From a virus (lineage: Duplodnaviria; Heunggongvirae; Uroviricota; Caudoviricetes): DNA of 30,523 bases. The stretch covers positions 1 to 30,523 of IMG/VR virus record IMGVR_UViG_2737471824_000004, one strand, 5' to 3'. This document shows positions 2,317-23,121 of the stretch, piece after piece. The notes beneath the pieces were generated by a model that worked only from the letters and a program-made list of their open reading frames with translations, searched no databases and had not been told where the DNA came from. The position numbers and the translations under genes are program-made. How positions within the stretch are numbered: position 1 is the first letter of the stretch; each line of letters begins with the position of its first letter.

Positions 2317-2508
2317 TTAAATACTTGTCGTGACTTCTTTATTATCCTGACGAATAACTTTATCAACCTGATAACAGTTACCTGGAATTTTCTGTTCTTC
2401 TGCAGCAGCCATGCATTCTTTCATGGAGTTGTATATTCCTGCAACTATATCAACCGGTTCACCGGAAACAAGAAAAACAGTCATAACAAGCGCGAATACT
2501 GTATTCAT
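2317..2508 (-). CDS. hypothetical small protein with N-terminal hydrophobic segment (63 aa; sits where YdfD lies in Qin)
   Basis: ORF-track ORF; start ATG shares one base with the upstream gene stop (TGATG); N-terminus VFALVMTVFLV is hydrophobic. Confidence 0.5.
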   Translation of the reverse strand: MNTVFALVMTVFLVSGEPVDIVAGIYNSMKECMAAAEEQKIPGNCYQVDKVIRQDNKEVTTSI

Positions 2509-2693
2509 CAGTGTCTCCAGAAAATACCAAGTCTGAGAAGAGCCATTCTGGAAAGTATGGAATTATCATTGAGAAAATAAGGCTCATATTTCCTCATATT
2601 AATGGCATCTTCAGTAAACTCACGGTTACTGATTTGAACACCAATTTCAAAACAACCTTCAGATGTATTGATGTTTGGTAATAACGTTTCCAT
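2508..2693 (-). CDS. dicB: DicB-like cell-division inhibitor (61 aa)
   Basis: METLLPNINTSEGCFEIGVQISNREFTEDAIN closely resembles my recollection of the E. coli DicB N-terminus (MKTLLPNVNTSEGCFEIGV...); C-terminus diverged. True start is ATG at 2693 with RBS GAGGAAACGATA; the track M at 2711 is TTG. Confidence 0.6.
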   Translation of the reverse strand: METLLPNINTSEGCFEIGVQISNREFTEDAINMRKYEPYFLNDNSILSRMALLRLGIFWRH

Positions 2694-2707
2694 TATCGTT
2701 TCCTCGA

Positions 2708-3262
2708 TCAATGGATATTAAGTAACTGCTCCACGGTCATATTTTTAATTACGTCCCTGTTCACAAGCGTCCATCCCTGTTTCTCCAGATAAAAGCGGAA
2801 GGTTTCCAGGGTACAGACTATTGCTCCATCAGGAACGGTTTCAGTGAATTTGATGTTGCCGTGTTCGTCGAAGTGAACAACCAGAGTACGGCCATCGCCA
2901 GGAATCATCTTGTCAGCGGACGGGGTGTTATTCTGGCGCAGCTCTGCCTCCATGCGGTCAAACTCGGCAATGTAGGCTTCTTTGAACGCGGCGGCTTTTT
3001 TGCCGGTGAACCCCATCACCAAAAAAACGAAGCCGTTTTTGGTGATCTGGTACATTGGGAGCTTGCGTCCTGTTGAGTCGGTGTATTCGCTCGACACAAA
3101 ATTGTGCTCAGTGAATTTTGCTGAACAGTCCAGATTGCGAATTTTATCCAACACTCGTTCGTGGCGTTTACCAAAGAACTCGGCGATCGCAACAGACGTA
3201 GTGACAGCGCGACCATTTTCGATGGTTACATCAGGGTGATAAATGGTAGGGGTAGTAGCCAT
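2708..3262 (-). CDS. Rha-family phage regulatory/antirepressor protein with C-terminal domain shared with the ORF6N protein at 17746..18309
   Basis: Rha motif (VAIAEFFGKRHERVLDKIRNL...YQITKNGFVFLVMGFTGKKAAAFKEAYIAEF). Start chosen at ATG 3262 with GGAGG RBS 8 nt upstream; the in-frame upstream extension to 3670 crosses a terminator and a leader whose paralogue is non-coding. Confidence 0.7.
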   Translation of the reverse strand: MATTPTIYHPDVTIENGRAVTTSVAIAEFFGKRHERVLDKIRNLDCSAKFTEHNFVSSEYTDSTGRKLPMYQITKNGFVFLVMGFTGKKAAAFKEAYIAEFDRMEAELRQNNTPSADKMIPGDGRTLVVHFDEHGNIKFTETVPDGAIVCTLETFRFYLEKQGWTLVNRDVIKNMTVEQLLNIH

Positions 3263-3428
3263 GATGGCAGCCTCCGCGATGAATTTAATTAACTCACCAC
3301 CAGAGGTGCTAATCTCATGGGTGGTGAGACGCACAGGGTTAGCACTACCGGTCATCACGGAACCCGGCCAGCCTTGCGGCTGCCCTGCACGCCTCACCAT
3401 AATGCGAATGTGGCTGTGCTTAACGCAT

Positions 3429-3451
3429 AAAAAAACCGCCTGAGCGCGGTT
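3429..3451 (-). terminator. intrinsic terminator in the Rha leader (stem AACCGC/GCGGTT plus U7 on the minus strand)
   Basis: Hairpin at 3434..3451 followed on the minus strand by a 7-T run (plus-strand A-run 3429..3435). Confidence 0.5.
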
Positions 3452-3511
3452 ATGCGCCGTGATTGACTTCGGGGTGCTAATCCCGGCACCCGTTTTATGA
3501 GGTGCAGGTGA

Positions 3512-3540
3512 ACTATAATTCCACCCGTACTGGTTTTCAA
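3512..3540 (-). promoter_or_regulatory. sigma70-like promoter of the Rha cassette (-35 TTGAAA, 17-nt spacer, -10 TATAGT on the minus strand)
   Basis: Minus-strand hexamers at 3535..3540 and 3512..3517; homologous in position and sequence to the promoter at 17469..17497. Confidence 0.4.
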
Positions 3541-3739
3541 TAGCTACATTCAACATTTTCTCTTGCCTTTCATCACCGAAGTGAACTTTATTGATGCGGT
3601 GCCTGGTGCCTCCAGGTGACGTTAACCAGTTAACAATTAACGCCGGATACAGAGAATCCACCCATAACACTGTTTTTAGTTTTAACTGTTCCGCGTGCGC
3701 TTAGCCGCATTCACCGCATCACAAAATTCACTTTAAAAA

Positions 3740-13010: not shown

Positions 13011-13186
13011 TGCAGCGGGTGCTTGAGGCTATCTGTCTCAGGCATGAACACCAAAAGGCAGATAGAGAAAAGCCCCAGTTAACATTACGCGTCCGGCAAG
13101 ACGCTTAACATTAATCTGAGGCTCAATCTATGAACGGCAAATCTAGGTTAGCCTCTTACGTGCCGAAAGGCAAGGAGAAGCAGGCT

Positions 13187-13342
13187 ATGAAGCAGCAAAA
13201 GGCGATGTTAATCGCCCTGATCGTCATCTGTTTAACCGTCATAGTGACGGCACTGGTAACGAGGAAAGACCTCTGCGAGGTACGAATCCGAACCGGCCAG
13301 ACGGAGGTCGCTGTCTTCACAGCTTACGAACCTGAGGAGTAA
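13187..13342 (+). CDS. hokD: Hok/Gef-family type I toxin (51 aa; HokD/RelF-like)
   Basis: MKQQKAMLIALIVICLTVIVTALVTRKDLCEVRIRTGQTEVAVFTAYEPEE: transmembrane helix plus LCEVR...EVAVF signature; AAGGAG RBS; in-frame upstream extension from 13130 is a mok-like leader frame. Confidence 0.75.
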   Translation: MKQQKAMLIALIVICLTVIVTALVTRKDLCEVRIRTGQTEVAVFTAYEPEE

Positions 13343-15651: not shown

Positions 15652-16710
15652 GTGCGGGTATTACTTCGACCTGTTCTGGTACCGGAACTCGGGCTGGTGA
15701 TCGTTAAGCCGGGCCGTGAATCCATGCCGGTATTCCACAATACCCGGGTATTGGTGGAGCCGGAACCGAAAAGCATGCGTAATCTGCCGTCCGGGGTCGT
15801 TCCTGCCGTTCGCCAGCCGCTGGTGGAAGACAAAACATTGCTGCCGTTTTTCAGTAACGCACGGGTGATTCGTGCTGCTGGTGGTGCTGGTGCATTGTCT
15901 GACTGGCTGTTGCGCCATATTAAATCCTGCCAGTGGCCACACGGCGATTATCATCACAGCGAAACCGTCATTCACCGTTATGGTACCGGCGCAATGGTGT
16001 TGTGCTGGCACTGCGACAACCAGCTGCGTGACCAGACATCCGAATCACTCGAGCAACTTGCTCATCAAAACCTGTCAGCATGGATGATTGACGTCATCGG
16101 TCACGCAATAAGCGGTACGCAGGAGCGTGAATTATCTCTGGCTGAATTATCTTGGTGGGCGGTCCGCAATCAGGTGGCGGACGCGCTACCGGAAGCGGTA
16201 TTACGTCGTTCGCTGGGGTTGCGTGCGGAAAAAATCCGCTCAATGTACCGTGAAAGCGACATCGTACCGGGAGAGCAGACCGCCACCAGCATACTGAAAC
16301 AGCGCACAAAAAATCTTGCGCCGCTGCCTCACGCCCACCAGCAACAGAACCCGCCACAGGAAAAGACGGTGGTCAGCATTGCTGTTGATCCGGAGTCACC
16401 GGCTCAGTATCTCCAGCGCCAGAAACCACAACGGGAAGAGATGCCTGTATACACGCGCTGGGTAAAAACGCAGAAATGCATGACGTGCGGTAATCAGGCA
16501 GATGATCCGCATCACATCATTGGTCATGGACTGGGAGGGATGGGAACAAAGGCTGATGATTTGTTCGTTATTCCGCTGTGCCGTAAATGCCATAACGAAC
16601 TACACGCCGGGGTAAAAGATTTTGAAGAAAAACACGGCAGCCAGCTGTTGTTGCTGATTCGTTTTTTAATGCACGCGAAAAATTCGGGCGTCCTGAAGTG
16701 GAAATCATAA
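15652..16710 (+). CDS. DUF968-family prophage protein (YdfU-like, 352 aa) with C-terminal Cys/His-rich HNH-like motif
   Basis: GTG start after GGAGG; C-terminal CMTCG...HHIIGH...CRKCHNELH; position before rusA and Q matches Qin ydfU. Confidence 0.6.
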   Translation: MRVLLRPVLVPELGLVIVKPGRESMPVFHNTRVLVEPEPKSMRNLPSGVVPAVRQPLVEDKTLLPFFSNARVIRAAGGAGALSDWLLRHIKSCQWPHGDYHHSETVIHRYGTGAMVLCWHCDNQLRDQTSESLEQLAHQNLSAWMIDVIGHAISGTQERELSLAELSWWAVRNQVADALPEAVLRRSLGLRAEKIRSMYRESDIVPGEQTATSILKQRTKNLAPLPHAHQQQNPPQEKTVVSIAVDPESPAQYLQRQKPQREEMPVYTRWVKTQKCMTCGNQADDPHHIIGHGLGGMGTKADDLFVIPLCRKCHNELHAGVKDFEEKHGSQLLLLIRFLMHAKNSGVLKWKS

Positions 16711-17088
16711 ATGACTGAACGCATAGAATTTGTTTTGCCTTACCCGCCGACGGTGAATACTTACTGGCGACGTCGCGGCAGCACATATTTTGTATCAAAA
16801 GCCGGTGAGCGTTATCGCCGAGATGTGGCGCTTATTGTTCGCCATCAGCAACTGAAATTAAACCTCTCCGGAAGGCTGGCGATAAAGATTATTGCAGAGC
16901 CACCGGATAAGCGCCGTCGTGACCTGGACAATATCCTGAAAGCACCGCTGGATGCACTAACGCATGCGGGACTGCTTATCGATGACGAGCAGTTTGATGA
17001 AATCAATATTGTGCGCGGACTGCCTGTTCCTGGTGGGCGGTTGGGCGTGAAGATTTACGAAATTACAGGTGATAACGATGGTGCGTGA
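16711..17088 (+). CDS. rusA: RusA Holliday-junction resolvase (125 aa)
   Basis: [15 protein letters not shown]...[27 protein letters not shown] matches RusA hallmarks. Confidence 0.8.
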
Positions 17089-17464
17089 TATTCAGCAGGT
17101 TATGGAGCGGTGGGGAGCATGGGCTGCGAACAATCACGAAGATGTGTCATGGGCGTCAATCGCTGCTGGTTTTAAAGGATTAATCCCGCCGAAAGTGAAA
17201 TCACGCCCTCAGTGTTCTGATGATGATGCAATGATAATTTGTGGCTGTATGGCCCGGTTGAACAAGAAAAATCAGGATTTGCACGATTTGTTGGTGGATT
17301 ATTACGTAGGTGGAATGACTTTTATGGGGTTGGCACGAAAGCATGGGTGTTCGGATACCTGTATTGGCAAGCGCCTGCAGAAAGCGGAAGGGGTTATTGA
17401 TGGCATGTTGATGATGCTTGATATCCGACTGGAGATGGACAGATACGTAGAACGAATCATGTAG
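17078..17464 (+). CDS. late antiterminator Q (Q21/QuuD-like, 128 aa)
   Basis: [23 protein letters not shown]...[10 protein letters not shown]... resembles DLP12 QuuD as recalled; ATG 17078 with AGGTGA RBS; overlaps the rusA end. Confidence 0.75.
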
Positions 17465-17468
17465 GAGC

Positions 17469-17497
17469 TTGACCAGACACATTGTCCGGGGCTATAT
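17469..17497 (+). promoter_or_regulatory. pR'-like promoter directly after Q (-35 TTGACC, 17-nt spacer, -10 CTATAT/TATATT)
   Basis: Hexamers at 17469..17474 and 17492..17499; homologous to the promoter at 3512..3540. Confidence 0.4.
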
Positions 17498-17560
17498 TCC
17501 TCACGCGTCAGCAAAATCTGGCGTCGGGATTAGGAACCCCGGATAGAGACCGCGACAGAT

Positions 17561-17583
17561 ACACGCCGCGAGCGTGTTTTTTA
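17561..17583 (+). terminator. tR'-like intrinsic terminator (ACACGC-CGCGA-GCGTGT plus T6)
   Basis: Direct reading; about 70 nt downstream of the pR'-like promoter. Confidence 0.5.
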
Positions 17584-17745
17584 TTGTCGTATGCACGCGC
17601 ACATCTGAATTATGGTGGGGCGTATGGGGGAGCTGAAAGGCTCGCCGGTTGGTTTCCCGGTAGTTCCTAACCCTGTACGTCTCACCACCCGATGATTAGG
17701 AACCTGACGGTGGTGATAGTTTAGAAACCACTAGAGGGCGTCATT

Positions 17746-18309
17746 ATGACAACTCAAATCTCTGTTGAAACTCTCTCCCCGATCACCCATAACCAGATTC
17801 CTGTTATTACCACTGAACTTTTGGCGCAGCTTTATGGCACCGAAATTCTGAATATCCAGGTTAACTTCACCAGAAACAAAGAGCGTTTTGTCGCAGGAAA
17901 GCACTTTTTTAAAGCAGCGGGTGAGGAATTAAAAAAATTGCGACTTACTTTAAGTAAGTCACAAAATCCCATCTCTCCCAAAACCCGCTTCCTCATCCTA
18001 TGGACAGAACGCGGAGCTGCCCGCCACGCAAAAATGCTGGAAACAGATCAGGCGTGGGAAGTATTCGAAAAACTGGAAGACTGTTATTTCAGCCAGAAAC
18101 AGCCACCAGCAACACAAAACTCCCCCACCGAAAATGATGGATGCGCATTACTGATCCACTTCGATAAACACGGTCAGGTCGACTTCACGGAAAAAGTACC
18201 CGCCGATGCGATGGTATGCACTCTGGAACGGTTCAAATTTTATCTGGAACAACGCGGCTGGATCGTTGCCAGTAAAGAGCAACTGGTGGAACGACTGATG
18301 CGACTTTAA
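17746..18309 (+). CDS. ORF6N/KilA-N-type antirepressor-like protein with the same C-terminal domain as the Rha protein (187 aa)
   Basis: N-terminal ITTELLAQLYGTE...NKERFVAGKHFF...LWTERGAARHAKML resembles the ORF6N domain; C-terminus LLIHFDKHGQVDFTEKVPADAMVCTLERFKFYLEQRGW parallels the Rha C-terminus; RBS GAGGG. Confidence 0.65.
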   Translation: MTTQISVETLSPITHNQIPVITTELLAQLYGTEILNIQVNFTRNKERFVAGKHFFKAAGEELKKLRLTLSKSQNPISPKTRFLILWTERGAARHAKMLETDQAWEVFEKLEDCYFSQKQPPATQNSPTENDGCALLIHFDKHGQVDFTEKVPADAMVCTLERFKFYLEQRGWIVASKEQLVERLMRL

Positions 18310-18385
18310 AAATTTTCCCCGAACACTTTACGATCGTAAAAAGTTGAATATCCTGTTAAGAGTGGTTACTACGCCACACAGCTTA

Positions 18386-18410
18386 AACCCGCCGATGAGC
18401 GGGTTTTTTT
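18386..18410 (+). terminator. intrinsic terminator (AACCCGC-CGATGA-GCGGGTT plus T7)
   Basis: Direct reading. Confidence 0.6.
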
Positions 18411-18533
18411 GTGCCTGAAAAGCAGTACAGGACGTTAAATGCGCTGGTGGTTGCGAATACCGGCCTTTCAACTTGCTGGCTTTTTCGACAAGAGTTATTG
18501 GTATGTCACGTTAACCAGAAAAGGGAAAAAGAC

Positions 18534-18731
18534 ATGCTAAAACAGCAGGATATGAGCGAAACCGCCAGAGTGGTGTTTAATGAATTAAGCGTCACCGAAC
18601 CAGCGACCGTCGGGGAGATTGCGCAGAATACTTACCTTTCACGCGAATGCTGCCAGTTAATACTGACCCAGCTTGTTATGGCGGGCCTGGCAGATTATCA
18701 GTTCGGTTGTTACAGACGCCTTCCGCAGTGA
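18534..18731 (+). CDS. hypothetical small protein (65 aa)
   Basis: In-frame ATG at 18534 with purine-rich RBS; the track start at 18411 is GTG and overlaps the terminator. Confidence 0.4.
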   Translation: MLKQQDMSETARVVFNELSVTEPATVGEIAQNTYLSRECCQLILTQLVMAGLADYQFGCYRRLPQ

Positions 18732-18881
18732 AGGCTTTTTAATTTGTGGTAATGGGCGGCTGGTGGGTGTTAGCGGCACCTGCCAGCCATCTGCTCATGC
18801 GTTGGGGTCACAAGCAAACCTCAGGCCCATCTGCTTTGCGCAAAAGCGGTATGAGCCTATCAGAGAAGCGCTTATTGATCT

Positions 18882-19943
18882 ATGGCTAATACTGTAAAAA
18901 TATCCAGTTGTGAGTTAATCAACGCTGATTGCCTGGAATTTATCCAGACCTTACCGGAAAACTCTGTCGATCTGATAGTCACAGACCCACCATACTTTAA
19001 AGTGAAGCCAGATGGCTGGGATAACCAGTGGAAGGGCGATGATGATTACCTGAAATGGCTGGATCAGTGTCTGGCGCAGTTCTGGCGGGTGTTAAAACCT
19101 GCCGGAAGCCTTTACCTGTTCTGCGGTCATCGTCTGGCATCTGATATCGAAATCATGATGCGTGAACGCTTTAATGTGCTGAACCACATTATCTGGGCGA
19201 AGCCGTCCGGACGTTGGAATGGGTGTAATAAAGAAAGTCTGCGCGCATATTTTCCTGCCACAGAGCGCGTTCTGTTTGCTGAACATTACCAGGGGCCATA
19301 TCGCGGCAAAAGTGACGGCTATGCAGCAAAAGAAAGGAAACTCAAACAGCACATAATGGCACCGCTGATATCGTATTTCAGGGATGCTCGTGCCGAACTG
19401 GGTATAACGGCAAAACAAATTGCCGAAGCCACAGGTAAGAAAAATATGGTTTCCCACTGGTTTGGTGCCAGTCAGTGGCAGTTGCCGAATGAGGCTGACT
19501 ACCGGAAGTTACAGGCACTGTTTTCCCGTATAGCGGCAGAGAAGTTTCAGGAACAACAACTGGAACAACCACACCACCAGTTGGTGGCATCTTATGATTC
19601 ACTGAATCGCAAATATTCTGAATTGCTGGATGAGTTTAAATCTCTCCGGCGCTGGTTCTCCGTATCAGTCTCCGTGCCTTATACCGATGTCTGGATGCAT
19701 AAACCCGTTCAGTTCTACCCGGGCAAACATCCGTGTGAGAAACCGGCGGATATGCTCAGGCAAATAATCAATGCCAGTAGTCGACCTGGCGATCTGGTTG
19801 CTGATTTCTTTATGGGATCCGGTTCCACAATAAAAGCAGCAATGGCGCTGGGGCGTCGGGCATTAGGTGTTGAGCTTGAGACAGAACGGTTCAATAAGAC
19901 CATTCAGGAAATCAGTATGTTATCAGCAAATACAATTTTGTGA
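18882..19943 (+). CDS. DNA methyltransferase, N6-adenine/N4-cytosine family (beta class; 353 aa)
   Basis: Motif IV DPPY (IVTDPPYF) before motif I FxGSGS (FFMGSGSTIKAA); no adjacent restriction gene. Confidence 0.8.
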   Translation: MANTVKISSCELINADCLEFIQTLPENSVDLIVTDPPYFKVKPDGWDNQWKGDDDYLKWLDQCLAQFWRVLKPAGSLYLFCGHRLASDIEIMMRERFNVLNHIIWAKPSGRWNGCNKESLRAYFPATERVLFAEHYQGPYRGKSDGYAAKERKLKQHIMAPLISYFRDARAELGITAKQIAEATGKKNMVSHWFGASQWQLPNEADYRKLQALFSRIAAEKFQEQQLEQPHHQLVASYDSLNRKYSELLDEFKSLRRWFSVSVSVPYTDVWMHKPVQFYPGKHPCEKPADMLRQIINASSRPGDLVADFFMGSGSTIKAAMALGRRALGVELETERFNKTIQEISMLSANTIL

Positions 19944-20184
19944 ATTAACTCAATTATTAGTGGGACATCTGTTACGTATAATCCGTAACAACACGGTGCA
20001 TCCTGCAATGTAGCAGGGCTGATGTGGTATGATGTAATAAGGATTTTCATCATTTTCATGAGCATCAAAAGTTAAAGGGAGCGAGCCACGGTTGACCACG
20101 CCAAAGGCTCATCGGTAAAAATCCGACACCGTGTCTTCTTAACTCACTTATTGTTTCCACCCATGTTTTTGGATACCTGCTGTA

Positions 20185-20221
20185 GCTGTCAGATTAGCGC
20201 GATAATCTGACAGCTTTTTTT
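20185..20221 (+). terminator. strong intrinsic terminator (12-bp stem GCTGTCAGATTA/TAATCTGACAGC plus T7)
   Basis: Direct reading. Confidence 0.6.
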
Positions 20222-20513
20222 ACAACGAATCCTTCTGATCTGCTTTTGCGGGGCTTTTTTGTATCCGCTCCATGCCCGGCGTATAAGCGGAGGTTGGTCA
20301 GTTTTCTAAAAATTGAAATACCTCACAATTCAGCCAGTTAATGGTTGTTTGTCTGGCGAAGAGTTTGTAAATAAAAAAACGCATGGTGAATCCCCCTAAG
20401 CGGCGGGGCGAATCAGCAGTCAGTTCTGGGATAATCGCGGGTTTGTATGCTGATGCCGGACTCACCGGGAGGCACCCGGCACCATGCATCATGGTCATCC
20501 CCTTGTATGATAC

Positions 20514-20568
20514 CCCTCTCCGGAGGGGTATTTTTTGGATAAAAAAGCCCGCGCTGGGAGGCACGGGC
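20514..20568. terminator. back-to-back terminator-like hairpins (plus: CCCCTC-TCCG-GAGGGG plus T6 at 20514..20537; minus: hairpin 20547..20568 with T6 on the minus strand)
   Basis: Direct reading. Confidence 0.4.
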
Positions 20569-20969
20569 GGCAAGGAATAAAACGTGAAGAAATTTTCACA
20601 GGCGCATAATAATCCGATGTTGCCAGATTTTGCAACTGCAGCATCTGGTTATTATGTGAGCTGGAAAATCAGATTCTGTATGGACTGAAGCCATGCTGTT
20701 ATTTAGGGCCAAAGAGCTGGCTTTTTCCCGCCTTCTCTCCAGTAACGATTAATGAGAAAAGAATGAAATGCTTTTCCTGGGGAGGAGGGCAGTAGAAAAA
20801 AGAACCCGCCAGCAAAAATATGGGGGATGAACAGCTTTTGCTACTCAGGTTGCTGGCGGGTATGGTTCTTCATGAAATAAGAATGTTACGCTGTATTTTT
20901 AATGAAAATGATAATCATTGTCAATTGGTTGTGCGTATTTTTTCATACATGACTGGTAAAGGTGATTCA

Positions 20970-21000
20970 GGCCATCAGAGTTTTGCTGATGGCCTTTTTT
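20970..21000 (+). terminator. intrinsic terminator immediately upstream of the holin (GGCCATCAG-AGTTTTG-CTGATGGCC plus T6)
   Basis: Direct reading. Confidence 0.55.
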
Positions 21001-21033
21001 CTTTCCGGTAGCACAGGTCTGTCGGGGCGGGAT

Positions 21034-21249
21034 ATGTATCAGATGGAAAAAATATCAACAGGCATTGCCTACGGCGCCTCCGCAGGCAGTGCTGGCTACT
21101 GGTTTTTACAATGGCTTGATCAGGTTAGTCCGTCTCAGTGGGCTGCGATTGGTGTGCTGGGGAGCCTGTTCCTGGGTTTTCTGACTTATCTGACGAATCT
21201 GTACTTCAAGATAAAAGAGGACCGTCGCAAGGCGGCGCGGGGAGAGTAA
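21034..21249 (+). CDS. class II pinholin, S21-like (71 aa) with dual-start motif MYQM
   Basis: [38 protein letters not shown]...[13 protein letters not shown] matches phage 21 S as recalled; ATGs at 21034 and 21043. Confidence 0.8.
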
Positions 21250-21253
21250 TTCA

Positions 21254-21805
21254 ATGATTAAAAGCTATGAGTTGATTGTGAAAGGAACCCGCAATTTTGA
21301 GAATAAAGTCTCGGTAATTGTAGCCTTACAGGATAAAGAACGTTTTGCCGGTGAAATTGTTGATCTGAATATCAGCATGGATCGTGTTGAAGGGGCAACG
21401 CTGGAGTTTTACGAGACAGAGGCAATCAAACAGGCAAAGATATTGTTCCGGGATATTGCTGCCGGGTTATGTGAAGGGAACGAACCGTTGCCGGGAAAGC
21501 GCCCCATAATTTTAGAGGCGCAGAATGTGTGGATAACCTACAGAGGAAAACTACCGGGAAGAATTACTGGTTCTCTGAAGACGCCACCTACGGCATTGTG
21601 GTCAGAAAAAGATGATATTGAATCGCTCATTGAAAAACTGGAGGGCAGCGTCGCTGATCTGAATAAAAAATTGTCGGTGCTGATTCCTTCTGAAGATGAA
21701 AAAAAACACCGCGATGAGCAGTTTGCGGCGTTTTACGATTATTGCATTGAAGTTACTCGCAGGAATTTTGTGAAGATTTTTGAGGAGGGTAAATCTCTTC
21801 AGTAA
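21254..21805 (+). CDS. hypothetical protein (183 aa) inserted between holin and endolysin; low GC
   Basis: ATG 21254 preceded by GGAGAG inside the holin 3' end; no recognisable family. Confidence 0.55.
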   Translation: MIKSYELIVKGTRNFENKVSVIVALQDKERFAGEIVDLNISMDRVEGATLEFYETEAIKQAKILFRDIAAGLCEGNEPLPGKRPIILEAQNVWITYRGKLPGRITGSLKTPPTALWSEKDDIESLIEKLEGSVADLNKKLSVLIPSEDEKKHRDEQFAAFYDYCIEVTRRNFVKIFEEGKSLQ

Positions 21806-22126: not shown

Positions 22127-22660
22127 ATGAACGTAAAAATCAGATACAGCCTGTCGGCTGCTGTTCTGGCACTGATTGCCGCCAGTGCTCCTGCCCCTGA
22201 CATTCTCGATCAGTTTCTGGATGAAAAAGAGGGGAATCACACCACTGCATACCTCGATGGCTCCGGCATCTGGACCATCTGTCGGGGTGCCACGATGGTG
22301 GATGGAAAACCCGTTTTTCCCGGTATGAAACTGTCGAAGGAAAAATGCGACCAGGTTAACGCCATTGAACGTGATAAGGCGCTGGCATGGGTGGAACGTA
22401 ATATTAAAGTACCACTGACCGAACCCCAGAAAGCGGGTATCGCGTCATTTTGCCCCTATAACATTGGCCCCGGTAAGTGTTTCCCGTCAACGTTTTATAA
22501 GCGGCTTAATGCAGGTGATCGTAAAGGTGCCTGCGAGGCGATTCGCTGGTGGATTAAGGACAGGGGGCACGATTGCCGCATTCGTTCAAATAACTGTTAT
22601 GGTCAGGTTATTCGTCGTGACCAGGAAAGCGCATTAGCCTGTTGGGGGATAGAGCAGTGA
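22127..22660 (+). CDS. SAR endolysin (R21-type lysozyme, 177 aa)
   Basis: N-terminal signal-arrest-release segment ([16 protein letters not shown]) and E...D...T triad region [20 protein letters not shown]. Confidence 0.85.
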
Positions 22661-23121
22661 GAAGAGTAATCGCGATTATTTATGCTCTGGTTATCTGCAT
22701 CATCGTCTGCCTGTCATGGGCTGTTAATCATTACCGTGATAATGCCATTACCTATAAAGCCCAGCGCGATAAAAATGCCAGAGAACTGAAGCTGGCAAAC
22801 TCGACAATTACTGATATGCAGGTGCGCCAGCGTGATGTTGCTGTGCTCGATGCAAAATACACGAAGGAGTTAGCTGATGCGAAAGCTGAAAATGATGCTC
22901 TGCGTGATGATGTTGCCGCTGGTCGTCGTCGGTTGCGCATCAAAGCAGTCTGTCAGTCAGTGCGTGAAGCCACCACCGCCTCCGGCATGGATAATGCAGT
23001 CTCCCCCAGACTGGCAGACGTCGCTGAACGGGATTATTTTACCCTCAGAGAACGAGTGATGGTGATGCAGAAACAACTGGAAGGAGCGCAAGAATATATC
23101 CGTACTCAATGTCTGAAATAA
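22657..23121 (+). CDS. Rz i-spanin (154 aa)
   Basis: GTG 22657 overlapping the endolysin stop; N-terminal TM then coiled-coil ([18 protein letters not shown]...). Confidence 0.75.
22877..23059 (+). CDS. Rz1 o-spanin lipoprotein embedded in +1 frame within Rz (60 aa)
   Basis: AAGGAG RBS 7 nt upstream; lipobox LPLVVVGC; proline-rich. Confidence 0.7.

Follow-up and report, generated by a model that had tools for sequence, protein, structure and literature searches.

IsrK has been described as a short RNA made from a promoter under antitermination control, and at least StxS and IsrK are known to have regulatory functions (PMC7547250). Copies of STnc100 are transcribed in EHEC EDL933 according to RNA-seq, and one of them has been confirmed by northern blot and some carry ribosome footprints (PMC5331693). 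PasD of EPEC, seen on northern blots, is Hfq-dependent, has many RIL-seq targets and has an experimentally mapped 5' end (PMC8550237, Table S6); in the judgement of the authors of bioRxiv 10.64898/2026.05.13.724894, PasD and STnc100 have a common ancestor. EcOnc42 has been seen by northern blot and Hfq-CRAC (PMC7873438), and E2348C_1409.1408.IGR was detected by RIL-seq in EPEC (PMC8550237).

The window analyzed here is a 30,523-nt stretch of DNA from an E. coli-type lambdoid prophage. A 1.1-kb gap (19944-21033) separates its methylase gene from its holin gene, within the late operon between the Q-controlled promoter and the lysis genes. An earlier note on this DNA had described the gap as crowded with transcription signals and free of credible ORFs. 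All the signals it listed were recovered, offset by at most 1-5 nt. TGGTATGAT is present at 20025-20033, the terminator near 20185..20221 consists of a 13-bp stem (20184-20215) followed by T7, the back-to-back terminators occupy 20509-20540 (plus strand) and 20568..20541 (minus strand), the inverted repeat has perfect 12-nt arms (20800-20811 and 20848-20859), and the 10-bp pre-holin terminator (20969-20995) ends 39 nt upstream of the holin ATG (21034). Their density is well above expectation, with eight terminator-like sites in 1,090 bp compared with 1.1 +/- 0.9 in dinucleotide-preserving shuffles, and 16 compared with 4.2 +/- 2.1 in the wider 4 kb. Only two of the region's predicted promoters pass a simple consensus scan. 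We estimate at roughly 75% the probability that the region groups several small non-coding RNA genes within the late operon, each transcribed on its own (Table 1). The region is mostly ordinary for such phages, since two of its units fall in families known from pathogenic E. coli. All transcript ends given for the locus were placed from homology and sequence.

Table 1 Features of the region and related features elsewhere in the window.
Feature	Coordinates	Strand	Basis or remark
Late control region: pR'-like promoter, isrK, terminator (tR')	17469..17582	+	outside the region
Predicted sigma-70 promoter of copy 1: weak -35 TTATTA, consensus -10 TATAAT (19977-19982)	19954..19982	+	read from sequence
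STnc100-like copy 1, diverged tandem paralogue	19990..20222	+	Rfam, R1 and fold
Copy 1, multi-helix 5' domain	19991-20134	+	
Copy 1, single-stranded linker	20135-20183	+	
Copy 1, intrinsic terminator stem, T7 following	20184-20215	+	
Weak second terminator-like hairpin and T6	20239..20258	+	terminator scan
Predicted promoter of copy 2: TTGTTT-N17-TAAATA, TG ahead	20345..20373	+	read from sequence
STnc100 copy 2, PasD/EcOnc13 relatives	20381..20540	+	Rfam RF02076
Copy 2, 5' domain (107 nt)	20381-20487	+	
Copy 2, linker, likely seed	20488-20508	+	
Copy 2, terminator, U-run following	20509-20532	+	
EcOnc42/EcOnc21/EcOnc08-family RNA (E2348C_1409.1408.IGR)	20541..20598	-	blastn, alignment A8
Predicted promoter of EcOnc42-like RNA: TTGCAA-N18-TATTAT	20606..20635	-	promoter scan
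Small hairpin, then U-rich stretch	20678..20696	+	terminator scan
Candidate small RNA, ~95-100 nt	20795..20893	-	fold, conservation; predicted ends
Predicted promoter of the minus-strand candidate: TTGACA-N17-TAAAAA	20896..20924	-	scan gives TTGACA-N18-AAAAAT
Unit X, terminator unit	20922..21001	+	scans, variant comparison
Third STnc100-like 5' domain, without own terminator	3587..3728	-	R1, Rfam; outside the region

The earlier note had offered small RNAs, a displaced late-promoter control region, or both, as the content of the gap. The promoter-like sequences of the region, with strong terminators behind them, do resemble a pR'-tR' layout. However, Q (PF06530, E = 2.5e-52) is encoded at 17069-17464, and 5 nt past its stop codon there is a pR'-like promoter, TTGACC-N18-TATATT (17469-17498; 10/12 matches), which is the only strong sigma-70-like promoter in 17000-19000. 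It is directly followed by isrK (RF01394, 17505-17582, 66.9 bits) with its own terminator. The elements to be expected directly downstream of Q are found at 17469-17582 and not within 19944-21033, and their order can be recognized as the normal pR'-tR' arrangement, 2.4 kb upstream of the region. This agrees with the published role of IsrK (PMC7547250). In other phages, STnc100 units are found a long way from Q, on the 3' side of stx2 or of tRNA genes. A displaced pR', Q-utilization site and tR' in the region is hardly credible, and we rejected this part of the earlier proposal on the strength of the Q-promoter-isrK cluster (17069-17582). The small-RNA part stands for at least two units, as the region holds a full-length STnc100 match and an EcOnc42-homologous unit, together with a diverged STnc100 paralogue.

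The gap might instead encode small proteins. Candidates are a 63-aa ORF (20820-21011) and a 65-aa ORF (20383-20580), the latter overlapping STnc100 copy 2. Hypothetical proteins are annotated over both stretches in some RefSeq records, and footprints on some EHEC STnc100 copies could point the same way (PMC5331693). However, a Pfam search with the eight small ORFs of the region returned no matches. The 63-aa ORF is retained only in the near-identical IHE3034 copy and has lost its ATG and acquired frameshifts or stops in each of the four more clearly divergent variants. Relatives carry shortened forms of the 65-aa ORF, with ~25 codons left in one of them, and a GTG-started 34-aa ORF (20584-20688) would, by alignment, shrink to two codons in E2348/69. 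Conservation tracks RNA helices rather than codons. These observations make a coding explanation highly improbable; the region contains no conserved or recognizable ORF, and a small protein gene that could account for it, the outcome against which the earlier note had set its own reading, was looked for by Pfam and ORF conservation and not found. We likewise discarded tRNA and tmRNA genes as its content, since ARAGORN finds none in the window. No relatives of the region were found in the E. coli K-12 prophages DLP12 and Qin; at the analogous place, Qin carries the small protein gene ynfU, which is unrelated in sequence.

The covariance search proposed in the earlier note yielded a match to STnc100 (Rfam RF02076) at 20352-20540, with 113.9 bits (E = 1.9e-24) over the full length of the model (positions 1-206). 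The score is far above the gathering score of 47 bits and places copy 2 clearly within the STnc100 family. Copy 2 also scores 107.8 bits against R1, our own model of the 5' domain, from whose building copy 1 was left out. The mapped 5' end of PasD aligns to position 20381, and the block AGTTTGT(T/A)AA upstream of copy 2 keeps the same spacing to GCATGG in family members. A discrete, Hfq-dependent RNA of ~160-210 nt would be expected from the STnc100/PasD units here, judging from their EPEC and EHEC relatives.

Convergent on copy 2, with the two terminators back to back, is a minus-strand unit that matches the EPEC small RNA at 81% over 86 nt (blastn, E = 1e-16). It comprises a 5' mini-hairpin, an invariant UUAUUCCUUGCC and a terminator at 20568..20547, its 5' end having been placed from the predicted promoter. 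In an alignment of five sequences, the -10 element TATTAT and the UUAUUCCUUGCC seed are invariant and TTGC is conserved; the terminator stems vary among members yet look able to pair, by inspection rather than by count. With homology that includes both seed and terminator, the unit can be assigned to the EcOnc42/21/08 family. The convergent pair recurs in five of the loci compared, L015 among them, and is found in an Stx2a phage, phage PhiR5_1, E2348/69 PP6 and IMG/VR prophages. Reports of expression and Hfq binding concern only the relatives in EHEC and EPEC; for the unit in the window, both would be expected from homology.

Copy 1 folds into the same architecture as copy 2 (-71.4 kcal/mol, z = -3.4), and its closing helix and first and last hairpins are preserved by compensatory changes. 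It scores 29.3 bits against Rfam STnc100 (E = 3.4e-4, 1.25-kb search), below the gathering score, and 22.6 bits against R1 (E = 1.3e-3, whole window). Copy 1 is best called a diverged STnc100 relative, and not a member by the Rfam criterion. The TATAAT at 19977-19982, which is kept in the IHE3034 variant despite diverged flanks, would give a start at ~19990, where the closing helix begins, which matches the start position in the PasD/STnc100 family. We prefer it to TGGTATGAT because it fits this family start position; TGGTATGAT at 20025 was rejected as a promoter because it lies ~35 nt within the folded domain of copy 1. In IHE3034, the closing helix of copy 1 has one A-C mismatch, and this, with the sub-gathering score, suggests that copy 1 could be decaying.

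A third 5' domain is found outside the region, between DicF and a second isrK, and scores 33.4 bits against R1 (E = 4e-6) and 38.9 bits against Rfam STnc100 (model positions 22-154). Across 19 distinct sequences, 94.7% of cells in the three helices of the 5' domain are paired, compared with 37-46% in slid controls, and 11 of 18 pairs have changed on both sides, values that none of 500 shuffles reached, with the caveat that the alignment was fitted to the model. All three copies in the window share the closing helix and the first and last hairpins through compensatory changes. The units of the region are also placed as STnc100/PasD units are in E2348/69, PhiR5_1 and an Stx2a phage, in the late region from Q (17069-17464) to the lysis genes (holin at 21034-21249) and on the late-operon strand. 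Tandem arrays of diverged STnc100-like units occur again in L015, and some other prophages have a terminator-less 5' domain in front of accessory (moron) genes. The last hairpin contains a Shine-Dalgarno-like GGGAGG, and we considered whether this and the closing-helix AUG form a translational leader; this was dropped, since none of the terminator-less relatives has an ORF of at least 40 aa starting at that AUG.

The remaining 3' part of the region contains a minus-strand candidate and a plus-strand terminator unit. In the candidate, a single-stranded 5' stretch leads into a long hairpin (20859..20800), which is followed by a UCUUUUUU tail, and the predicted fold is unusually stable (-31.2 kcal/mol, z = -5.2). 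Two G-U pairs in the inner stem would be A-C if read on the plus strand. The stems are nearly invariant, leaving covariation nothing to act on, and the sole stem change, in ColV plasmids, preserves pairing only on the plus strand. Among six variants, the -35 element of its promoter (TGTCAA) is invariant and the -10 element nearly so. Unit X has a possible weak promoter (-10 GATAAT, 20910-20915), an invariant GUAAAGGUGAUUCAG and a strong terminator followed by T6; lacking a convincing promoter, it may be just a terminator. Neither the candidate nor unit X matched any sequence printed in the papers searched, and unit X has no demonstrable named relative. The smaller hairpin at 20678..20696 shows U-G to C-G and G-C to G-U changes in variants, which keep pairing only on the plus strand. 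Sponge or antisense relations within the island were dropped, because no pairing among its RNAs, isrK, the holin start region and the PasD seed reached z below -2. The window's copies are close to ExPEC/APEC-type prophages.

Beyond the STnc100 and EcOnc42-like genes, the region could be decaying mosaic filler in which the minus-strand hairpin and unit X have no function. It is indeed a mosaic: copy 1 occupies the site of tRNA genes in other prophages, its 5' half is swapped relative to IHE3034, and none of 50,697 sequenced phages contains segment 20640-20985. A 44-nt stretch (20242-20285) has matches of ~89-91% identity in many E. coli genomes and lies directly 3' of tRNA genes in three of the loci; the weak hairpin at 20239..20258 sits inside this stretch. 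However, no other block in the 3' half is as well conserved as the minus-strand hairpin, in which 0.9 of the columns are invariant among variants that are otherwise 85-91% identical. It is retained in IS-flanked remnants and in ColV plasmids from which the lysis genes are gone. We regard functionless filler as very unlikely.

As a cluster of small RNA genes, the region would work as follows. Two tandem plus-strand STnc100/PasD/EcOnc13 units would each consist of a sigma-70 promoter, a multi-helix 5' domain of roughly 105-145 nt with an 8-bp closing helix, a single-stranded stretch, which in relatives carries the seed for Hfq-dependent mRNA pairing, and an intrinsic terminator. In the lysogen, each unit would use its own promoter and its RNA would act in trans, while the terminators, chiefly the one closest to the holin, would shield the lysis genes from sRNA transcription. 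After induction, RNA polymerase modified by Q would start at pR' (17469-17498), pass all the plus-strand terminators and so express the holin, lysozyme and Rz genes.

Shielding could also be the entire function, with the terminators blocking read-through into the holin in the lysogen and the short RNAs being functionless by-products. At least five plus-strand terminator-like sites in the region (20184, 20239, 20509, 20678 and 20969) are consistent with such a stack of insulators, as are further sites between pR' and the region (17561, 18385 and 18718), all of them before the holin. Furthermore, the terminator of unit X is intact where a holin follows (the window, IHE3034 and FDA943) and weakened in holin-less remnants (ColV plasmids and ST131). 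However, conservation of the 5' domains, promoters and seeds extends well past the terminators, two of the units are on the minus strand and are unable to protect the holin, and relatives bind Hfq and have defined target sets. Insulation alone is therefore unlikely, and a cluster of small RNA genes whose terminators would also insulate remains our preferred reading.

A more speculative extension, which we think probably wrong, is that the 105-145-nt 5' domain may be an autonomous RNA module, serving for instance protein binding, RNA processing or stability, and not mere packaging for a seed, and that, independently, the nearly invariant minus-strand hairpin RNA, which sequenced phages lack and which persists in ColV iss plasmids and ST131 prophage remnants, may be a domesticated regulator in extraintestinal E. 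coli. The first part is suggested by the strong covariation of the domain while linker and terminator are freely exchanged, by the presence of three such domains in one prophage, and by its terminator-less occurrence in the DicF-isrK unit and before moron genes.

Taken as a whole, a seemingly empty 1.1 kb of late operon appears to be densely used, since it holds no fewer than three non-coding RNA genes and perhaps as many as five. Standard annotation leaves such stretches blank or adds spurious hypothetical proteins. In EPEC and EHEC, prophage small RNAs of these families are known to bind Hfq and to base-pair with mRNAs of the host and of virulence genes; thus, copies in other E. coli lineages may rewire host regulation during lysogeny. 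For annotation, these results indicate that diverged tandem STnc100-like units can fall under the Rfam threshold and pair with a convergent EcOnc42-like gene, and that the late control region should be sought right after Q, not beside the lysis genes.

Unit X weakly matches Rfam SgrS (RF00534) over the 3' seed-plus-terminator part with 24.9 bits, below the gathering score of 37, and, unlike SgrS, it has neither the 5' part nor an sgrT-like ORF. We excluded it as an SgrS mimic acting on ptsG, because the match is sub-threshold and 154 of 500 shuffles gave a duplex energy with the ptsG leader at least as good as its own. An 11-mer, ACCCGCCAGCA, is common to the minus-strand candidate and the SgrS terminator region. 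The candidate, which has no demonstrable named relative, is positioned and oriented like PasA/PasC (EcOnc51/52): as with these, it would be a small RNA of ~80-100 nt encoded against the late operon and immediately before the holin (here 140 nt from the holin start), with a TTGACA -35 box and GCCAGC in the terminator stem, whereas the associated holin type differs. Homology to PasA/PasC was dropped as not significant, since local alignment scores of 18 and 17 were reached by 245 and 335 of 1000 dinucleotide shuffles (p ~0.25-0.33) and blastn gave no match.

The EcOnc42-like unit shares with EHEC Sakai EcOnc42/21/08 and its EPEC equivalent E2348C_1409.1408.IGR the -10 element, the seed CCUUGC and a homologous terminator, as well as its orientation against the late operon and an STnc100 partner ending a few nt away. 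In contrast, homology of the window ends upstream of the -10 region, and the EPEC RNA is estimated at 182 nt while ~58 nt are predicted here from the conserved promoter, so that the RNA described in EPEC may represent a longer form or a precursor.

Copy 2 resembles PasD/STnc100 in its closing helix (GCAUGGUG/CACCAUGC), first and last hairpins, terminator layout and prophage late-region site, but its linker, CCCCUUGUAUGA, differs from the PasD seed, CCUUGUGAGU, and its targets may therefore differ. In copy 1 and in the copy at 3728..3587, compensatory changes have preserved this architecture; unlike STnc100/PasD, copy 1 differs in its central part and linker and scores below threshold, and the other copy lacks its own terminator and lies within the DicF-isrK transcript unit. 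Finally, like lambda 6S RNA, StxS and IsrK, the units of the region would be short terminated transcripts from the late region of a lambdoid prophage. Those RNAs begin at pR' after Q, a role played here by isrK, whereas the region's units are located 2.4-3.5 kb downstream of pR' and have their own predicted promoters.

The window is a lambdoid prophage of E. coli type. Gene placement by Pfam identifies 19944-21033 as a gap between the methylase gene and the lysis cassette, within the late operon (see table). This stretch is 95.3% identical overall to prophages of E. coli IHE3034, APEC O78 and about 120 other complete E. coli genomes, rising to ~99% once a 130-bp diverged patch is set aside, and the sequence recurs in an IMG/VR contig (L012), with a 100% match for each element except copy 2 (99.5%). 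The terminators, hairpins and -10-like sequence listed in the earlier note were all found in place, and the terminators are indeed dense (eight terminator-like sites per 1,090 bp, versus 1.1 +/- 0.9 in shuffles). The absence of a credible ORF was also borne out: none of the eight candidate ORFs had a Pfam match, and ORFs are broken in relatives. The 63-aa ORF at 20820-21011, labelled hypothetical protein by some RefSeq records, is kept only by the near-identical IHE3034 copy; in all four appreciably differing variants ATT replaces ATG, with additional frameshifts or stops. The ORF across STnc100 is shortened in relatives. The holin frame is open 5'-ward for 24 extra codons, across the terminator hairpin to a GTG at 20962 (20962-21249, +), but use of this extension is unlikely because a phage-21-type dual start (MYQM) is present at 21034.

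Features of the prophage, with the five predicted RNA units of the methylase-holin gap
Feature	Coordinates	Strand	Basis or detail
DicB	2508-2711		
Rha-family regulator	2708-3298		
isrK-C4 pair	3317-3505	-	
Third STnc100-like 5' domain	3587-3728	-	no own terminator
hok/sok locus	13017-13342	+	sok RNA 112.4 bits
Hok/Gef protein	13130-13342		70 aa
DUF968	15652-16710		Pfam
RusA	16711-17088		Pfam
Q antiterminator (PF06530)	17069-17464		Pfam
Predicted late promoter	17469-17498		TTGACC-N18-TATATT
isrK	17505-17582		66.9 bits
isrK-C4 pair	17505-17692	+	
ORF6N-domain protein	17746-18309		Pfam
N6/N4 DNA methylase	18882-19943		Pfam
Unit 1 (copy 1), STnc100-like	19990-20222	+	predicted
Unit 1 -10 candidate	19977-19982		TATAAT
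Unit 1 terminator	20184-20222		13 bp
Unit 2 (copy 2), STnc100	20381-20540	+	predicted extent
Unit 2 5' domain		+	107 nt; closing helix GCAUGGUG/CACCAUGC
Unit 2 linker		+	21 nt; AUCAUGGUCAUCCCCUUGUAU
Unit 2 terminator		+	10 bp stem
Unit 3, EcOnc42 family	20598..20541	-	predicted extent
Unit 4, hairpin RNA candidate	20893..20795	-	predicted
Unit 4 inverted arms	20800-20811 / 20848-20859		12 nt each
Unit 4 predicted promoter	20924..20896		TTGACA-N17-TAAAAA
Unit 5 (unit X), candidate	20922-21001	+	
Unit X -10 candidate	20910-20915		GATAAT
Unit X terminator	20969-20995	+	39 nt before holin ATG
Phage-21-type class II holin	21034-21249		Pfam
DUF1327	21254-21805		Pfam
Lysozyme	22127-22660		Pfam
Rz	22642-23121		Pfam

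The earlier note had attributed the transcription signals to small RNAs and/or a displaced late control region. Covariance models and blastn support the first part, since members of two small RNA families, STnc100 and EcOnc42, were identified. At the Rfam gathering threshold, STnc100 (RF02076) matches 20352-20540 with 113.9 bits, and unit 2 is a member of this family. STnc100 is prophage-borne and transcribed, with about 11 copies in EHEC EDL933, one of which was confirmed by northern blot (PMC5331693); in Stx2 phages it lies 75 nt downstream of stx2 (PMC12370729). STnc100 is judged to have a common ancestor with PasD1/PasD2 (bioRxiv 10.64898/2026.05.13.724894), which are Hfq-dependent EPEC small RNAs equivalent to EcOnc13 (PMC8550237). 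The PasD 5' end GCATGGTGAATCC, set by RNA-seq coverage and northern size (PMC8550237), aligns with window 20381. Upstream of this position is a predicted promoter, TTGTTT-N17-TAAATA with TG before it, and elsewhere in the family the AGTTTGT(T/A)AA block has the same spacing from the start. The predicted RNA would thus extend from 20381 to about 20540.

When the region was scanned with Rfam at permissive settings, STnc100 also matched 19956-20174, with a score under the gathering cutoff (29.3 bits, E 3.4e-4). Our own covariance model of the 5' domain (R1) was built from nine family members from other loci, with copy 1 left out, and matches the window in three places: 20381-20487 (107.8 bits), 19991-20134 (22.6 bits; whole-window E 1.3e-3) and 3719..3594 (minus strand, 33.4 bits), the last of these unexpected. 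By comparison, PasD, an accepted relative, reaches 33.8 bits with R1. Judged by its sequence, copy 1 is a diverged tandem STnc100 paralogue whose predicted architecture is kept via compensatory changes. The closing helix is GCAUGGUG/CACCAUGC in the family and ACACGGUG/CACCGUGU in copy 1, the first hairpin CCCCC/GGGG and CCUGC/GCAGG, and the last hairpin, which adjoins the 3' strand of the closing helix in both, CCGGG/CCCGG and UCGG/CCGA. Across 19 distinct sequences, standard pairs occupy 94.7% of pair cells (versus 37-46% with partners slid 1-3 columns) and 11 of 18 pairs have changes on both sides, although these counts lean somewhat on an alignment fitted to the model. The extended -10-like TGGTATGAT, previously read as a promoter signal, falls within the folded domain and probably does not serve as the promoter of copy 1; the consensus TATAAT instead predicts a start at the foot of the closing helix. 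Most differences between the window and IHE3034 fall in the central and promoter-proximal part of copy 1, the part that is variable across the family. Copy 1 may be decaying, because its IHE3034 counterpart has one A-C mismatch in the closing helix. Tandem arrays are not peculiar to the window: the IMG/VR prophage L015 has three successive STnc100-like units, each with its own terminator, and the middle one (closing helix GUGAUG/CAUCAC) is as diverged as copy 1.

The third STnc100-like domain lies between DicF and isrK. Its closing helix, AUGCGGUG/CACCGCAU, has four compensatory pair changes, and it appears to be embedded in a DicF-isrK-C4-Rha-DicB transcript unit. The prophage has two isrK-C4 pairs, one followed by the Rha-family regulator and DicB, the other located after Q and before the ORF6N-domain protein; the layout is similar to that of the phage P1 c4-icd-ant immunity module. 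A weak match to c4-a1b1, the C4 target family, at 3466-3518 overlaps isrK. The prophage also carries a hok/sok toxin-antitoxin locus. In five other loci (L090, L068, L071, L076 and L088; ~1974-2164), a hairpin without a U-run comes after an STnc100 5' domain, and two lipoprotein-like accessory ORFs (2275-2703, 2854-3249) come next; there the domain may act as an mRNA leader. In E2348/69 PP6 (L004, 2638-2743, -), RefSeq places a partial 'hypothetical protein' pseudogene, probably a spurious call, exactly over an STnc100 5' domain (64.5 bits). In E. coli FDAARGOS_943 (L094, 2400-4489), four tRNA genes (Ile, Arg, Thr, Gly) come after the same methylase, in the place of the window's STnc100-like units (cf. 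19990-20222), and in the prophages checked (L052, L065, L031) a 44-nt stretch matching window 20242-20285 comes after the tRNA genes. The site thus seems to accept either tRNA clusters or STnc100 units, as interchangeable cassettes.

On the minus strand, the terminator at 20568..20547 is part of a unit homologous (81% over 86 nt, E 1e-16) to E2348C_1409.1408.IGR, an EPEC RIL-seq small RNA equated by its authors with EHEC EcOnc08/21/42 (PMC8550237). Northern blot and Hfq-CRAC have both revealed EcOnc42 (PMC7873438), which 'bookends' stx1 on the 3' side. Unit 3 is a member of this family. Alignment of five members shows no variation in the -35 TTGC, the -10 TATTAT, a small hairpin or UUAUUCCUUGCC, which contains the site complementary to the common target motif of the EPEC study (PMC8550237); the terminator stems vary, with pairing that still looks possible (uncounted). 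The RNA predicted from this promoter is about 58 nt, whereas the EPEC RNA is estimated at 182 nt, which may be a longer form. EcOnc42-like and STnc100 genes converge, their 3' ends separated by a few nucleotides, in each of five settings: the window, a Stx2a phage (L008), phage PhiR5_1 (L009), E2348/69 PP6 (L004) and IMG/VR prophages (L015, L027, L054). The back-to-back terminators thus mark where the two genes of a conserved module meet.

Before the holin, the inverted arms form a long hairpin (minus-strand fold z = -5.2), followed on the minus strand by UCUUUUUU. In the inner stem, two G-U pairs would become A-C mismatches in an RNA of the plus strand. The predicted promoter is conserved in six variants, and from it a candidate RNA of about 95-100 nt is predicted. 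The hairpin block is the best-conserved part of the region's 3' half (0.9 of columns invariant; variants 85-91% identical overall); its stems barely vary, and the sole stem change, in ColV plasmids, keeps pairing on the plus strand only. PasA and PasC are likewise minus-strand RNAs just upstream of a holin (PMC8550237), but their sequence similarity to unit 4 is not significant, and unit 4 is therefore only a positional analogue. In unit X, an invariant GUAAAGGUGAUUCAG precedes the terminator, and the only promoter candidate is weak. Shielding of the holin from read-through fits as a putative role, because the terminator is intact with the holin downstream and weakened where the holin is lost. 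A sub-threshold match to SgrS (24.9 bits) was discarded, as predicted pairing with the ptsG leader was no better than for shuffled sequence.

The segment with units 4 and 5 is found in 1,427 of 5,426 complete E. coli genomes, with 642 places on plasmids. ColV-type IncF plasmids carry it about 380 bp from iss, beside iro genes and with the lysis genes deleted; in two such plasmids (L010, L011) the equivalent of window 20642-21004 is next to this serum-survival gene. PLSDB has 554 plasmid records with this stretch at about 85% identity, the lysis genes being deleted. In ST131 and related chromosomes, the segment is in an IS-flanked remnant beside an Rz fragment. It was restricted to E. coli and Shigella among 185,579 species representatives, and was not found in 50,697 sequenced phage records.

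The best sigma-70-like promoter of 17000-19000 lies 5 nt past the Q stop codon, at the pR' position, and is followed by isrK and its terminator. IsrK, StxS and lambda 6S RNA have each been described as the short RNA of an antitermination-regulated promoter (PMC7547250). Given this published role, the control region sits directly after Q and is therefore not displaced, contrary to the second part of the earlier proposal. On the way from there to the holin, polymerase modified by Q would need to get past terminator-like sites at 17561, 18385, 18718, 20184, 20239, 20509, 20678 and 20969. By analogy with relatives and lambda biology, each unit would be transcribed from its own promoter in the lysogen, the RNAs may work with Hfq on mRNAs via single-stranded stretches, and the terminators would hold transcription off the lysis genes until Q is made. 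Complementarity suggesting sponge relations was not found among the island's own RNAs.

It is already established that late regions of prophages in pathogenic E. coli abound in small RNAs, and units 2 and 3 belong to described families. Modestly new relative to the literature consulted are copy 1 as a diverged tandem unit and the third copy next to DicF, the recurring module in which STnc100 and EcOnc42-like genes converge, and two unnamed conserved pre-holin candidates that persist in ColV plasmids, points that are unsurprising to a specialist.
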